Virus record (IMG/VR): IMGVR_UViG_2579778538_000002
Reading direction: 5' to 3' (one strand)
Length of the DNA: 33,753 bases
From: a virus
Lineage: Duplodnaviria > Heunggongvirae > Uroviricota > Caudoviricetes
Position numbers and translations under genes: made by a program. This document shows, piece after piece, positions 1-8,791 of the stretch (position 1 is the first letter of the stretch; every line of letters starts with the position of its first letter). The notes beneath the pieces were generated by a model, which saw only the letters and a list, made by a program, of their open reading frames with translations, was not told where the DNA came from and did not search any database.

Positions 1-347
1 CATGTTACCGTGACGGAATTCCACCTTGCAGGAACTGGCACTGACTCTGGTCTGAGTGGAAGTGGATAAAGACGGCGCAATGGCCGCCACAGGTTCTTTC
101 TGCTCATCCGGCGTTATTTCTACAGGTAATAATTCAACGCCAGTGTCAGAAGAGGTCGTTACCGGAAGACGCCGCGAAACACGCCCTTCGTTCTGCCAGA
201 GCCTGAGCCATTTGAAAATAACATTATCATTGACGCCATTTTCACGTGCAATCTGTGCAACACAAGCTCCAGGTTGTGATGCCAGTTCCACCATACGAAG
301 TTTGAATTCATTCGAATAGTTTTTACGAGGTTCTTTTCGCCAGTCCT
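1..347 (-). CDS. IS-element transposase OrfA-like protein (HTH, IS3/IS66-type), 5' part only; continues beyond window start
   Basis: Minus-strand frame open from ATG at 347 to position 1 (not in ORF track because no stop in window). Translation MELQDWRKEPRKNYSNEFKLRMVELASQPGACVAQIARENGVNDNVIFKWLRLWQNEGR has the pattern of insertion-sequence OrfA helix-turn-helix proteins (compare IS911 OrfA ..FSAEFK..). Family assignment from memory, not searched. Confidence 0.5.
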
Positions 348-443
348 GTAATTCCATACTTAGATGTCCGTCTATATCAGATGGGCGTCTAAGTTACCAA
401 TTCTCGTCTGATGGCTACATACGGCGGTCAGTTTACGCTTACC
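348..443 (-). mobile_element. putative IS terminus and leader upstream of the transposase orfA
   Basis: About 95 bp non-coding between the gpI-like stop (449) and orfA start (347); on the transposase strand the segment begins GGTAAGCGTAAACTG, which could be a terminal inverted repeat. Other IS end is outside the window. Confidence 0.3.
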
Positions 444-448
444 CATAA

Positions 449-1027
449 TCAACTGCTCCCGTGGTTATAACTGCCATCATGGATGGCGGTATTGTTATAG
501 CGAATGGCCACAGACTGATACTCCAGGCTGGCCAGATGGCAGCGGGCCGGTGCAAATGCAGCCAGCGTCTGACGCAGCATCGCGGCCTGATCGTTAGTAA
601 TGGGCTGTTTCAGAATAACGCGATAAACTGCCCAGGCGGCTGCATCTCCATGAACAAACAGTCCGTTATAGCTGCGATTGCCGTCGTAACTGAGACGACC
701 TGTGCCTTCAATCAGATCCACTTCACCAAAGCCAAAACGGCGGATAACTTCCCGGATTGACCACGGCGTCCCTTTATACCGGTGCAGTTCGATGGCTGCT
801 TTTATAAGCATGCGGCGAACATCGTCCGATTCCGCCAGCTCCCAGCCATCGCCAGACAGTGAGAACTGCTCGCCCAGCCATGGCAGCGCGGAACTGTCGA
901 CGATATCGACGAGAAAGACCATCAGTACGCTCAGGTCGATGTTATCCAGCCGTCCTGCCAGTCTTCCCAGCGTCCTGAGACTGATATCACCCTCAAGCGG
1001 TGGCGGGAGTTGTAATGGCTCAGTCAT
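449..1027 (-). CDS. baseplate/tail protein, P2 gpI-like (Mu gp48-like)
   Basis: 192 aa ORF immediately after the gpJ-like gene with overlapping stop/start; size and position match P2 gpI / Mu gp48. Confidence 0.65.
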   Translation of the reverse strand: MTEPLQLPPPLEGDISLRTLGRLAGRLDNIDLSVLMVFLVDIVDSSALPWLGEQFSLSGDGWELAESDDVRRMLIKAAIELHRYKGTPWSIREVIRRFGFGEVDLIEGTGRLSYDGNRSYNGLFVHGDAAAWAVYRVILKQPITNDQAAMLRQTLAAFAPARCHLASLEYQSVAIRYNNTAIHDGSYNHGSS

Positions 1028-4263: not shown

Positions 4264-4466
4264 GGGGCAATATCCTCTTCTGTACGGGCTTCTTCAGCCT
4301 CAATCACCGGGATCAGTAACAACAGCCCGGAGGGCAGCACCGGCGTGATGGCCACGTGCGGATTGGCGGCAATAATCCGGGGATAGCCCAGCGGGTCACC
4401 GTAGTACTGCCATGCCAGCGAATCCCAGCGCTCTCCGTCACGGGTAACATGTTCAAGAAACATCAC
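4251..4466 (-). CDS. tail protein X-like (LysM-like small tail protein)
   Basis: 71 aa, overlaps both neighbours; size and position as P2 gpX-family tail protein. Confidence 0.55.
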   Translation of the reverse strand: MMFLEHVTRDGERWDSLAWQYYGDPLGYPRIIAANPHVAITPVLPSGLLLLIPVIEAEEARTEEDIAPWLR

Positions 4467-5347
4467 ACACTCCTCGTCAGTATTCTGGCGGCCATTGCAC
4501 TTAATCCCGGAGACATGCGGTTGAATGCTGTGCCGACGGCGTTAAGCTGCCCGGAAACGGTATCCAGAGCACCTGCAATATTTCTTTTGTCCACACCACT
4601 CAGCGCAGACTGTGCCTGCTGTACATACGTGGCTGCTTCGCTGGCTGTTCTGGCCAGACTGATGGCATCGGGCATGGATTCAGAGAGTGCGTTAAACGCC
4701 GGAACACTTTTCCCCAGAGCCCCGGAGATATTACCCAGTCCGCTCATCAGCCCCGGCACACGGGTCAGTGCGACAACGGGGTTATCCTTCATTTTCTGTG
4801 TCACCCGAACGGCGCTGATAGTGGTCTGGAGTACAGACTGCGCCTGTTTCGCATAGTTGACGCCGTTGCGGATGAACTGCGCCACCCCTGAAGGTGAAGG
4901 TATGGCACCGGAGACCGCCCCGACACCCGGGAGCTTCGTGCGTATTGCCGGTGGTTGCAGAGGATTTTTCGGGTCACCGGTGTATTCCCGGAGAGACACG
5001 GTGGCACTGACAGCCAGCACGTTGCCGGTACTGTCAGTCTGCTCGCTGGTTGCAGTCACATCGGTGATCACGAACCAGCCGCGATAGTCACCGTTGCCGA
5101 AGACCAGCGCCAGTGCCTGATGGGCTTTCATGGCTGTTCGCAGTCTCGCCAGCTCCACATCGGGTACACAATAATGCTGATGGAAAACCAGAGTTATCTG
5201 GATTTCGTCCAGCCTGTCGCCGACGAACTGCAGACCAGGCTTACCCCCGATGCGGGCATGCTCCGCATAATCGACGCCGAACGTGGCCTCGAAGCCGTCC
5301 CAGTAGGTAATCAGCTCAAACTCAATATCACCCAGTACGGCAAACAT
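4463..5347 (-). CDS. tail formation protein, P2 gpU-like N-terminus (Mu gp43/N region)
   Basis: 294 aa; N-terminus MFAVLGDIEFELITYW...GKPGLQFVGDRLDEIQITL resembles the gpU signature (..LG.F.F......FQFLG...I.L.G); starts 1 nt inside the tape measure stop. Confidence 0.55.
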   Translation of the reverse strand: MFAVLGDIEFELITYWDGFEATFGVDYAEHARIGGKPGLQFVGDRLDEIQITLVFHQHYCVPDVELARLRTAMKAHQALALVFGNGDYRGWFVITDVTATSEQTDSTGNVLAVSATVSLREYTGDPKNPLQPPAIRTKLPGVGAVSGAIPSPSGVAQFIRNGVNYAKQAQSVLQTTISAVRVTQKMKDNPVVALTRVPGLMSGLGNISGALGKSVPAFNALSESMPDAISLARTASEAATYVQQAQSALSGVDKRNIAGALDTVSGQLNAVGTAFNRMSPGLSAMAARILTRSV

Positions 5348-8298
5348 CAGCGGTACTCCTTACGTTGTTTCTGAGCCAGCAGACGCTCCAGCATTTTTTC
5401 CAGCTCATGCAGACTCATATTCAGGGCACCAGTCAGTCCTGCAGGCGCTGTGGTTTCCCTGCCATTGAGGAAAAACTGAGGATTAAAGCTGACCTGGATA
5501 CCACCAGACGTTCCACCGCCGGTTGCAGCTGCACCACGGCCTGAATATCCGGCAGCCAGGATTTCAGGCGAGGGGATACGGGGAACATCCGGTGTCATCT
5601 CATTTGCCAGACGTTGCCCTGGTAAAATCGATGCCCGGGTGGAGAGCGGAATAGCGGGCATGGAAGACAAACTATTGATTACGGCTCCGATCGCATTTTT
5701 AGCAGACGACATAAACCCATTGATATCGGGCAACGGCATACTGAAGCGAACACCTGAAGTGTTATCCCGTATTTCTGGCCCCTGAATGCTCACGGGCATT
5801 CTGGGGAGCAGTTCACTGGCCATTCGCTGCCCGGCCAGAGCTGCAAGCGGAGTGGTCCGCTGCAGGCCAATGGCGGCCCCCTGCGCGATATTGTCACCAA
5901 AGCCCATAAACACGCGGCTCGGCGAATGAATGCCCAGCTTTTCGCTGAACCAGCCACTGATGCTGTCGCCCATTCCGGTTACACTGGATTTGAGCGACTC
6001 CCATTTGTTTTTGATACCGTTAATCAGACCATCGACAAGATGGCCACCGAAGTCGGTAAACTTTGCCGGCAGATCAACACCAAGATATTTCAGCGCAGCT
6101 GCAAAGGCTTTATAGAGCAGACCTGCCGGCGACCAGTTAATCAGCAGCTTACCAGTTCCCGCGATACCGCCGTTAAAGGCTTCCTGAATGTCAGCCCAGC
6201 ATTGTTTAAACCAGCTACTGATGCTGTCACCCATTCCGGTTACACTGGATTTGAGCGACCCCCATTTGTTTTTGATACCGTTAATCAAACCGTCGATAAG
6301 ATGGCCACCGAAGTCGGTGAACTTTGCCGGCAGAGTAACGCCGAAATATTTCAGCGCAGCCGCAAAGGCTTTATAGAGCAGGCCTGCCGGCGACCAGTTA
6401 ATCAGCAGCTTACCAGTTCCCGCGATACCGCCGTTAAAGGCTTCCTGAATGTCAGCCCAGCGCTGTTTAAACCAGCCACTGACTGCCCCCCAGTTGCGGT
6501 AGATAAGGTAAGCTGCTGCCGCGACAGCGGTGATAACGAGACCGATGGGATTCATCATCAGCGCTCGCCCAATCCAGAGAACGGCACGTGCAGCGCTCAT
6601 AAAACCGCGAACGAGGCTGCCCGCCAGAACTTTGCTGAGTTTCAGTCCTCCGCTGGTCAGTCGGCTGAATCCAGTGACAAGCCAGCGTAATTTGCCACCT
6701 TCTCCGAGTGCGGTAGTCAGTCGATGCCAGTTGGTCCGGAGTAAAACAGCAGTTTTCCAGACGTTCACAAAGGGGGAAATAAGGAGATTCAGCCCCAGTT
6801 TGAGACCAACAGTCGCTATCTTAATCGCAAGGAGCGCACTGATGAGCTTAAAAGCCCCACTGACAAATTGCGGGTGAGTCGCCACCCAGTGTTTTGTCCC
6901 CTGAATGAGTGGGAGCAAGTCCTGAGTCAGAGAAATAAAAGATGGAGCTAATTGATCGCCCAGCGTAATTGCCAGATCGCGACTGCTGACCATAAGTGTT
7001 TTAGTGGCTTCAAGGGGAGATTTCAGCCGCTGATCATAAGCACTGGCAAGCAAATCGTTATCCGCAGCCCTGAGAGCACCGGCACGGATCTCTCGATATC
7101 TGTCCATGTTGGCCAGCATCGGGCGGATAAATGCCATGACCTGCATATCCGCGAACATATCGCCCAGACCAAAGTTTTTCGCCAGAGCCTGAAGTGCCTC
7201 ATCTCTTGCCGTATCATTCTTTATTTTCATGGCTGATTTGAAGCCGGCCAGCGCTTCGGGGCTTTTGGCATTGAGGTAACGTTCTATAACACTCAACATC
7301 CCTTCAATCGGAGAGATCCCCGCAGCTTTATAACTCGCAATAGATCCCTGCAAATCAATACCCAGATCAGCAAACTGTTTCTGAGTATCGCGGGCAAAAA
7401 TTTTGGTAAGAAAGTTTTTAAAATTATTGGCTGCTTCGTCGGTGGAACCTGCACCGATTTTTGCTATCTGGAGACTGGCCCCGATTTCAGCAACAGCCTC
7501 TTTTCCACTGGCAATACCCGCCATCATTGGGGCCAGGGACTGCATCCACTTGACCTGATCCGGGATTTCAAATGACCCCTGGTCACCGGCATAAGCCATA
7601 ATATTCTGAACGGCACCAAAATCTCTGGCCGCGCCTTTCAGGGAGTTTTGCCAGACTGCGGCCACTTTTGCCCAGTCCTGAGCAGACGTGCGTGTTGCCG
7701 TTGCCGCGCGGGCAATATCCGGCATCAGAAAACCGATATCTGACACATTATCAATATTGTCGCTGATGAGTGAACCCATCGCCTCCTGCAGCTCATCCTG
7801 ATACTGATTGTATTTAAGCGCCCAGCCTTTTATCTGTCCGGCAAGTGCATCCCGCGTTTTATTGTCATATTTTGCGGTGATCGACATATCAATCATTTTG
7901 TCCTGAAAAGACATGGACTGCTGAACGGCAGGGGAAACCGTATGATAAACAGTCTGTGCCATGCCATACGCTTCAATCCCCTGACCATACAGCGCCATGC
8001 GGTTAGCTTTCAGCGCATCACTGGTAGCGGATGCCGCTGACAGACGGCGCTGCTGGCGCTCAATTTGCTCCATGGTGCGGCTTACCCGCAGCAGCTCGCT
8101 GTTGAGATGCTGCATCCGGGAAGAACCCAGTTGACCATAACGTTCTGTTGCACGGGTTAAAGCGTTCTGACGTTCCTGCAGGCGGCGTGAGGTATCGCTC
8201 AGGGAATCAAGCGCACGGCGGGTACCGCTCATTGCAGAACGGAATGTGCTGCCAATCATCCCGCCGATAACAACGCCGACTGAAAACTGTCCCGACAT
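5347..8298 (-). CDS. tail tape measure protein
   Basis: 983 aa, largest tail gene, directly downstream of the frameshifted chaperone pair; helical N-terminal third, hydrophobic central segment, internal tandem repeat; GGAGG Shine-Dalgarno about 10 nt upstream of ATG. Confidence 0.85.
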   Translation of the reverse strand: MSGQFSVGVVIGGMIGSTFRSAMSGTRRALDSLSDTSRRLQERQNALTRATERYGQLGSSRMQHLNSELLRVSRTMEQIERQQRRLSAASATSDALKANRMALYGQGIEAYGMAQTVYHTVSPAVQQSMSFQDKMIDMSITAKYDNKTRDALAGQIKGWALKYNQYQDELQEAMGSLISDNIDNVSDIGFLMPDIARAATATRTSAQDWAKVAAVWQNSLKGAARDFGAVQNIMAYAGDQGSFEIPDQVKWMQSLAPMMAGIASGKEAVAEIGASLQIAKIGAGSTDEAANNFKNFLTKIFARDTQKQFADLGIDLQGSIASYKAAGISPIEGMLSVIERYLNAKSPEALAGFKSAMKIKNDTARDEALQALAKNFGLGDMFADMQVMAFIRPMLANMDRYREIRAGALRAADNDLLASAYDQRLKSPLEATKTLMVSSRDLAITLGDQLAPSFISLTQDLLPLIQGTKHWVATHPQFVSGAFKLISALLAIKIATVGLKLGLNLLISPFVNVWKTAVLLRTNWHRLTTALGEGGKLRWLVTGFSRLTSGGLKLSKVLAGSLVRGFMSAARAVLWIGRALMMNPIGLVITAVAAAAYLIYRNWGAVSGWFKQRWADIQEAFNGGIAGTGKLLINWSPAGLLYKAFAAALKYFGVTLPAKFTDFGGHLIDGLINGIKNKWGSLKSSVTGMGDSISSWFKQCWADIQEAFNGGIAGTGKLLINWSPAGLLYKAFAAALKYLGVDLPAKFTDFGGHLVDGLINGIKNKWESLKSSVTGMGDSISGWFSEKLGIHSPSRVFMGFGDNIAQGAAIGLQRTTPLAALAGQRMASELLPRMPVSIQGPEIRDNTSGVRFSMPLPDINGFMSSAKNAIGAVINSLSSMPAIPLSTRASILPGQRLANEMTPDVPRIPSPEILAAGYSGRGAAATGGGTSGGIQVSFNPQFFLNGRETTAPAGLTGALNMSLHELEKMLERLLAQKQRKEYR
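5950..6471. repeat. in-frame tandem duplication, 2 x 261 bp, inside the tape measure gene
   Basis: Two adjacent 261-nt units starting near 5950 and 6211, about 94% identical (about 16 mismatches); a third unit begins at 6472 and diverges after about 10 nt. Encodes a duplicated 87-aa block (WFKQRWADIQEAFNGGIAGTGKLLINWSPAGLLYKAFAAALKY...). Confidence 0.9.
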
Positions 8299-8373: not shown

Positions 8374-8791
8374 CTATGATTTGTCGCCGTACTCGCTTTT
8401 GATTTGCTCTTCAGCCTGCTCCAGCCACATCTCCAGATCGTCAGTATCGAGGGCATCAATCTCCCCCGGCTGAAACCGGAACCATCTCGCCAGCAGCCCC
8501 TGCGCCTGCGTCAGCGCCCTGGTTGCTCTCACCCATCCCCGTGATGAGCTGAAATCGTTTCTGTAACTGCAGGTAATCAGCCAGATCCATATTGTCGAGA
8601 TCCTCCGGGAGAAGACCAGTACTGCGGGCAATCAGCGGTTCGTCCCAGTCTGCCGGGTTTTTGCTGATTTTGCGCACCTGCTTCAGGTCTTTTACCGTCA
8701 GGCGTTTCAGTTCAACCAGCTCAATTCTGGTGCCTGCAGCAGTGGTGAAGGGATAAGACAATTTAAAAGTATCGGATGGGGTCTGTGACAT
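8374..8791 (-). CDS. frameshift-extended tail assembly chaperone (gpE+E' / gpGT analogue), +1/-2 shift near 8461-8469
   Basis: The +1 frame stays open for a further 29 codons past the 8456 stop. The shift must occur in the overlap; the G5 run CCGGGGGAG three codons before the stop is the obvious slippery site. Predicted fusion about 139 aa. Confidence 0.45.
8456..8791 (-). CDS. tail assembly chaperone (P2 gpE / lambda gpG analogue)
   Basis: 111 aa ORF immediately upstream of the tape measure gene, with AGGAG Shine-Dalgarno 8 nt before ATG; a second ORF (8374-8631) overlaps its 3' end in the +1 frame, the conserved chaperone arrangement. Confidence 0.6.
   Translation of the reverse strand: MSQTPSDTFKLSYPFTTAAGTRIELVELKRLTVKDLKQVRKISKNPADWDEPLIARSTGLLPEDLDNMDLADYLQLQKRFQLITGMGESNQGADAGAGAAGEMVPVSAGGD

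Follow-up and report, generated by a model that had tools for sequence, protein, structure and literature searches.

IMGVR_UViG_2579778538_000002 is a 33,753-nt stretch of DNA from a virus of the class Caudoviricetes, and the whole of it is referred to here as the window. It contains a tail tape measure gene whose 983-aa product carries an 87-aa block twice in succession. Tandem Repeats Finder reports one tandem array in the whole 33.7-kb window, at 5948..6482, with a period of 261, 2.0 copies, 93% matches, 0% indels, and a score of 958. The period equals 3 x 87 nt, and hence the array is in frame with the tape measure gene, a 2952-nt minus-strand open reading frame (ORF) that is the only long one to span it. 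A plus-strand ORF that overlaps the repeat (5926..6690, 254 aa) was set aside as a spurious antisense frame of this well-supported gene.

In codon phase, the array resolves into two units, A and B, that together occupy 5953..6474. The initial annotation had placed a 261-bp in-frame tandem duplication at 5950-6471, and this is confirmed with coordinates that agree to within 3 nt. The units differ at 16 of 261 nt with no indels, and their identity of 93.9% matches the earlier figure of about 94%. An identity of 245/261 without indels is far beyond chance. At the codon level, A and B are separated by eight synonymous changes and six amino-acid changes (R5C, F44L, T47D, I60V, G72E, and S87G).

The host gene is a tape measure gene, as first proposed. 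PF10145 (PhageMin_Tail / TP901-type) matches residues 159-340 at 74.6 bits against a cut-off of 33.2, the 983-aa protein matches phrog_28, phrog_794, and other PHROG tape-measure families, and the PGAP annotation of a complete genome with the identical gene labels it 'phage tail tape measure protein'. Its position is also that of a tape measure gene, after the tube, sheath, and chaperone genes and before the distal tail and baseplate genes, between the chaperone gene and homologues of gpU, X, and D. A Pfam scan of the 87-aa unit and of the two-unit segment gives no match above threshold, and the weak matches to domains of unknown function are noise. The 11- or 18-residue periodicity marked by Trp or Phe that is described for other tape measure proteins is not seen here: the period is 87 aa, Tandem Repeats Finder gives no shorter one, and the only 11-residue spacings read within the unit are F2-F13 and F44-F55.

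Both boundaries of the array carry an exact copy of a 13-nt homology that reads AACCAGCCACTGA on the plus strand, and the internal A/B junction (6209..6221) carries it with one mismatch. A third unit had been thought to begin and then diverge, but what is present there is the 13-nt boundary homology and no decayed third unit. The coordinates of these features, together with the array states of related loci (numbered L001 to L015), are collected in Table 1.

Table 1. Features of the tape measure region in the window and states of repeat units at 10 diagnostic sites in related loci
Feature	Position or locus	Strand	Details
Tail tape measure protein gene	5347..8298	minus	983 aa; ORF, PF10145, PHROG, PGAP name in identical complete genome
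Repeat unit A, first in protein (aa 609-695)	6214..6474	minus	261 nt / 87 aa; 'a' state at 10/10 diagnostic sites
Repeat unit B, last in protein (aa 696-782)	5953..6213	minus	261 nt / 87 aa; 'b' state at 10/10 diagnostic sites
Upstream boundary copy of 13-nt homology TCAGTGGCTGGTT (S-G-W-F)	6470..6482	minus	counterpart in outgroup L010: TCAGTAGCTGGTT
Downstream boundary copy of 13-nt homology TCAGTGGCTGGTT	5948..5960	minus	counterpart in outgroup L010: TCAGTGACTGGTT
Unit A copy of 79-nt tract (unit nt 14-92) identical in A and B	6383..6461	minus	longest identical tract in this allele
Hydrophobic segment aa 579-600, immediately upstream of array	6499..6564	minus	Kyte-Doolittle 19-aa windows above 1.6
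Hydrophobic segment aa 478-508	6775..6867	minus	Kyte-Doolittle 19-aa windows above 1.6
71-aa segment aa 823-893 (GQRMASELLP...RASILP), absent from 821-aa lineage	5620..5832	minus	protein alignment
gpU-like tail protein gene, directly downstream of tape measure gene	4463..5347	minus	PF06995 Phage_P2_GpU; phrog_788
Tail assembly chaperone gene, upstream of tape measure gene	8456..8791	minus	PGAP 'phage tail assembly protein'; PF10109 Phage_TAC_7 in L015; phrog_166
Outgroup single unit	L003, L010		ababaababb
Outgroup single unit	L002		abababbabb
Single unit, close lineage	L008		abbbbbbbbb, switch after first site
Single unit, close lineage	L004, L009		aabbbbbbbb, switch after second site
Middle unit, 3-unit array	L007, L012, L013		baaaaaaaaa, switch after first site
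Middle unit, 3-unit array	L005, L006		aaaaaaaaaa; 1 nt from unit 1
Middle units, 4-unit array	L015		baaaaaaaaa twice, switch after first site, identical to each other

Repeats of this size do trouble assemblers, and the Escherichia phage record PhiKM (PQ738613.1, L001), which is 99.3% identical to the window, has a 100-N gap (4915-5014) that runs from inside unit A to inside unit B, with its tape measure gene annotated as two fragments. The repeat evidently broke the assembly of that record. The window could by the same token really have one unit or some other number, with its second copy made by misassembly, yet the chance of this is close to nil. The tape measure gene is found in 636 of 5426 complete E. 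coli genomes, 371 of them at an identity of at least 99%, and dozens of the complete genomes listed, which come from independent projects, match it at 100% along the full 2952 nt. These carriers are mostly O25b:H4 isolates of sequence type 131 (ST131) and related human isolates. The Sanger-era genome IAI39 also has two units in a 983-aa ORF, and the pattern of 16 differences between the copies is conserved across alleles. The identical gene in many complete genomes and the two-unit allele of IAI39 refute an assembly artefact, as the initial annotation had concluded. Its further view that the duplication is not very recent also stands, since 10 of the differences are fixed across alleles.

Copy number varies among close relatives of the gene. 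A search of 5.8 billion proteins returns close homologues (95-100% identity) of 896, 983, or 1070 aa, and motif counting assigns them one, two, and three units, respectively. A 1157-aa member of the window protein's cluster (WP_113383342.1) has four units, which is confirmed at the DNA level in L015; this four-unit locus lies at L015 1501-4974 (GCA_003301715.1, BGUC01000026.1). All of the one-, two-, three-, and four-unit genes examined are uninterrupted ORFs. PGAP calls the three-unit genes of L005 (2001-5213), L007 (2001-5213), and L012 (377-3589) as two pseudogenes that are 'incomplete; partial in the middle of a contig'. Each of these genes is an unbroken 1070-aa ORF, and the calls are an annotation artefact from the extra unit.

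A 561-nt single-unit query identifies 70 complete genomes with one unit. Three of these are 100% identical to a chimeric unit of the ST131-type allele (described below) and 13 match at 94.6-96.7%, which gives 16 single-unit genomes with close alleles. The remaining ~54, at 91% identity or less, come from a more distant lineage whose protein has 821 aa and in which ~54 of roughly 56 complete genomes have a single unit; the phage records KP12 and Phi06_2974 B (84-86% nucleotide identity) are single-unit members of the same lineage. The duplication is thus neither unique nor fixed, and near-identical prophages carry anything from one to four copies. The three one-unit complete genomes with the ST131-type allele show that copy number changes on an epidemiological timescale, although, as consensus assemblies, they give no rate.

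The two copies might instead be an ancient fixed feature, the same in all homologues and therefore uninformative on tail-length variation. Two units are indeed present in most close alleles, with the same 10 position-specific differences between A and B, so the duplication is older than the diversification of those alleles. Nevertheless, alleles with one, three, and four units occur at 95-100% identity, complete genomes included, and nearly all complete genomes of the distant lineage have one unit. Fixation of the two copies is accordingly extremely unlikely. The initial annotation, which had treated the duplication as not anciently fixed in all homologues and had supposed that unduplicated relatives exist, is borne out on both points.

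The history of the array may be read from 10 nucleotide sites, each with one fixed state (a) in the first unit and a different fixed state (b) in the last. The sites were defined at the DNA level on the multi-unit alleles of L005-L007, L011-L013, and the window. L015, which was scored after their definition, fits, with a first unit that is all a and a last unit that is all b. The single units of the outgroups are interleaved mosaics of a and b, the pattern that would be expected of an ancestor if separate changes became fixed in each copy later. In the close lineage, the single units are chimeras that switch cleanly once from a to b, at one of two breakpoints, and they are therefore products of secondary deletion and not ancestral single copies. 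The expectation of single-copy relatives consequently holds for the 821-aa lineage as an unduplicated state; in the close relatives, one unit does not represent the ancestral state.

The a-to-b units of the contracted arrays and the b-to-a middle units of the expanded arrays are the pair of product types that unequal exchange should yield when units are misaligned. With its copy-number polymorphism, a-to-b contracted and b-to-a expanded chimeras, and preserved frame, the array has the features of a coding minisatellite. Most breakpoints lie between unit nt 13 and 93 (L007, L008, L012, L013, and L015), which in the window allele is the 79-nt identical tract. Arrays of one, two, and three units are each found in both of the flanking-sequence backgrounds seen, which points to recurrent copy-number events. 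The pair of identical b-to-a middle units in L015 marks the most recent expansion seen.

The synonymous and nonsynonymous differences between the units bear on both selection and age. By the NG86 method, dN between A and B is 0.036 and dS is 0.168, a dN/dS of about 0.2, which indicates purifying selection on both units. Estimates of dS between A and B range from 0.13 to 0.19 and those between either unit and an outgroup unit from 0.36 to 0.58, and the duplication accordingly postdates the split from the single-unit lineage. In single-unit outgroups, a version of the 13-nt homology with 11/13 matches flanks the unit at either end, and the boundary homology itself predates the duplication.

The preferred reading, with a probability of roughly 0.8, is one old duplication followed by recurrent unequal recombination, which would give stepped tail lengths from a ruler protein. 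The ancestral single unit would have been flanked by an imperfect 13-nt direct repeat encoding S-x-W-F on both sides. A single duplication, probably through slippage or illegitimate recombination between these short flanking repeats, would then have produced two copies; a microhomology origin is what the boundaries suggest. The copies would have diverged at the 10 sites that are now fixed, with purifying selection acting on both. Since then, unequal homologous recombination of misaligned units, with most crossovers in the long identical tract towards the 5' end of the unit, is the likely source of the one-, three-, and four-unit alleles, which would have arisen repeatedly. The repeat, the copy-number polymorphism, the chimeric units, the intact frames, and the purifying selection are all observed.

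Tape measure proteins occupy the tail tube and determine the point at which tube and sheath polymerisation stops. Copy-number variation in the array therefore probably gives a natural series of tail lengths, in which each unit is expected to change the tail by about 13 nm, or roughly three to four hexameric tube/sheath rings. TP901-1 tails go from 118 nm down to 65 nm as engineered deletions remove up to 347 aa, which amounts to 0.153 nm/aa (Mahony et al. 2016, PMC5099701). In phage Mu, 30 tube/sheath rings, each with a rise of about 35 A, surround a trimeric tape measure protein, which is modelled at its C-terminus to residues 674-690 and is therefore at least 690 residues long (PMC11915804). 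The Mu figures convert to about 0.15 nm/aa, with about 23 residues to each ring. The initial estimate of ~0.15 nm per residue and ~13 nm per unit agrees with both values and would carry over to the window by analogy. The predicted tail lengths are 123 nm for the 821-aa protein, 134 nm for 896 aa, 147 nm for the 983-aa protein of the window, 160 nm for 1070 aa, and 174 nm for 1157 aa, all of them rough values from the nm/aa conversion.

Several points weigh against this account. The effect on length is inferred for every allele, and the sole hint that the prophage forms particles is the existence of the GenBank phage record PhiKM at 99.3% identity. Literature searches on the prophage in ST131, on phage PhiKM, and on measured tails of BcepMu-like coliphages returned nothing relevant. 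The AlphaFold single-sequence model of residues 569-822 is mostly helical by DSSP, but its pLDDT of 40.5 makes it unreliable and too poor to support or contradict an extended helix in the repeat region, and it was not used as evidence. The proportions of two-unit (roughly 63-70%) and three-unit (18-23%) genomes come from evenly spaced samples of hit lists and are rough. The 896-aa form (P0103) occurs on 435 contigs, whereas one unit is found in three of the ~371 complete genomes with an allele of at least 99% identity. Many draft 896-aa calls are suspect because the form is far commoner on draft contigs than in complete genomes, and some one-unit calls, especially in drafts, could be collapsed repeats. 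An a-to-b chimera with its breakpoint in the 79-nt identical tract is also the expected product of de Bruijn graph collapse.

The same observations favour the proposal that only the two-unit state is biologically real and that entries with one, three, or four units are assembler collapse or expansion errors, for the commonest one-unit form is both the exact chimera of graph collapse and the form concentrated in drafts. The case for genuine one-unit alleles rests on the 16 complete genomes, which cover two allelic backgrounds and show two distinct breakpoints. Complete three-unit genomes are many, and they have at least three middle-unit structures and private substitutions of their own. Assemblers seldom add copies, and one-, three-, and four-unit genes are all intact ORFs. 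This makes assembler error very unlikely as a general explanation of the polymorphism.

The function of the units is a separate question. Copy-number variation could be real while the units are no ruler sequence but serve as a functional module, such as one that inserts into the membrane or forms a channel as DNA is injected, or one that binds a chaperone, so that copy number alters infection properties instead of tail length or is near-neutral. The array follows directly on the two hydrophobic segments (aa 478-508 and 579-600), and the purifying selection on both copies would be needless for a pure spacer. The terminal repeats of TP901-1 affect plaque formation, and repeats are described there as 'not alone responsible' for length (PMC5099701). 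A 2026 survey reports that tandem repeats are mostly absent from tape measure proteins of the myovirus type. Conversely, every TP901-1 deletion tested shortened the tail proportionally, in repeat and hydrophobic regions alike (PMC5099701), and other papers cite ruler behaviour as established for lambda and T4. A functional module in place of a ruler is therefore unlikely, and the two roles are not mutually exclusive.

A more far-reaching extension of the ruler reading is that the array is a tail-length contingency locus. RecA-dependent unequal exchange would maintain a reversible standing mix of one- to four-unit prophages in lysogens, and tail lengths would be selected by the thickness of the envelope, capsule, or O-antigen. 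This extension is speculative and has little probability of being correct. If it were true, independent amplification of the module with different periods in distant lineages would be a wider signature of such tuning.

The 87-aa module is found well beyond the close alleles. With the unit as query, a profile-free scan across 1.84 billion representative proteins gives 591 matches at E <= 1e-3. Module counts cover the 150 best-scoring representatives (P0121-P0270), of which 90 are full length (at least 700 aa); near-complete copies number one in 65 of these 90, two in 23, three in one, and four in one. Module periods in these distant tape measure proteins are 76, 87, 42-43, 49, and 113-114 aa. 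Identity between copies within a protein (0.5-0.74) is often above identity to the query unit (0.35-0.5), and this, together with the varied periods, shows that the module has been duplicated independently many times in the family. Of these cases, that of the window is the youngest and is still polymorphic.

The tape measure gene also varies outside the array. The 71-aa segment that is absent from the 821-aa lineage is, by the alignment, a second source of length variation. Its candidacy as a second, older duplication is unsupported: only its first ~20 residues resemble the beginning of the next segment (GQRLANEMTP...), and the overall similarity is not significant, with a BLASTP E value of 4.6. 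Residues ~100-470 (about 6890..8000, minus strand), which include the PF10145 region, are highly diverged between the 983-aa and 821-aa lineages, with conservation of the first 100 aa and of the C-terminal half. A diverged middle between conserved ends points to a gene made mosaic by recombination. Directly upstream of the array, close alleles carry one or the other of two strongly divergent 300-nt stretches (60 differences in 450 nt).

The element, which is integrated in E. coli, is a transposable myophage of Mu-like / BcepMu-like type, and GenBank classes PhiKM as Bcepmuvirus. The order of the tail module, taken from the PGAP annotation of an identical complete genome and from Pfam matches on L015, is sheath, tube, a small ORF with a domain of unknown function, chaperone, tape measure, gpU-like, tail protein X, gpD-like, and baseplate V/W/J/I. 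Past the baseplate genes lie head genes, lysis genes, a DDE transposase, Gam, and Mor, and the end of the element adjoins ycaL-cmk-rpsA. This tape measure allele is typical of E. coli ST131.

The chaperone ORF is overlapped by a second-frame ORF (8374..8631, minus strand) that is annotated elsewhere as a GpE-family protein, which is the usual layout of a frameshifted chaperone pair. No canonical slippery heptamer for a programmed frameshift is found in the chaperone gene, where the only candidate is AAACCCG at about 8660. The chaperone gene of L004 and L009 is annotated with an internal stop. At the tail-fibre end (1..450 of the window; L014 1-2250), PGAP marks fragmentary tail fibre genes with a missing N- and/or C-terminus, which puts in question the capacity of the prophage for complete, infectious particles.

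In-frame repeat variation is a familiar theme in several systems. Bacterial surface proteins contain minisatellite or variable-number tandem repeat (VNTR) arrays of long in-frame units, in which copy number shifts by unequal homologous recombination and gives stepped protein lengths. These proteins are cellular and often tied to immune evasion, whereas the repeat described here lies in a virion ruler protein. In-frame duplications and deletions in lambda gpH, in work attributed to Katsura & Hendrix (1984), and in T4 gp29, in work attributed to Abuladze et al. (1994), are said to shift tail length proportionally, and the T4 work reportedly extends ruler behaviour to contractile tails. Those variants are laboratory constructs in unrelated tape measure proteins and involve no natural copy-number polymorphism.

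Belcaid, Bergeron & Poisson 2011 (PMC3271669) likewise describe in-frame tandem units in tape measure genes whose length evolves by duplication and loss. Those repeats are short, with W- or F-marked units of 11 aa or 11-11-18 aa, and occur mainly in siphoviruses of Gram-positive hosts and mycobacteria. In contrast, the unit here is 87 aa without that periodicity, the element is a contractile-tail Mu-like prophage, and duplication and loss are a within-species polymorphism with identifiable crossover products. TP901-1 resembles the window in that its repeat region follows hydrophobic segments, and its repeats are proposed to make it easier for length to be gained and lost in nature (Mahony et al. 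2016, PMC5099701). TP901-1 is, however, a siphovirus with 29 short repeats and engineered variants, while the allelic series described here is natural. Mu is also a transposable myophage with a tape measure protein, gp42 (PMC11915804). The tail genes of the window are P2-like, in the order gpFI/FII/E/T/U/X/D, and in this they are unlike Mu, for which PMC11915804 reports no repeat polymorphism.

Tandem units with duplication and loss in tape measure proteins, and ruler behaviour in lambda and T4, are thus already known. Particular to this case are the 87-aa unit, its place in a contractile Mu-like prophage, and a one- to four-copy polymorphism with exchange products in a globally important clone. 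It is a well-resolved case of a known kind of variation and involves no new mechanism. On the practical side, the repeat probably yields collapsed one-unit genes in draft assemblies, along with PGAP mis-calls and the break in the PhiKM assembly. The array could serve as a VNTR marker for the prophage of the pandemic ST131 lineage. The natural allelic series of 896, 983, 1070, and 1157 aa, in whole steps of 87 aa, permits a test of the ruler model without engineering and would test ring quantisation of the ruler in a contractile Mu-like phage.

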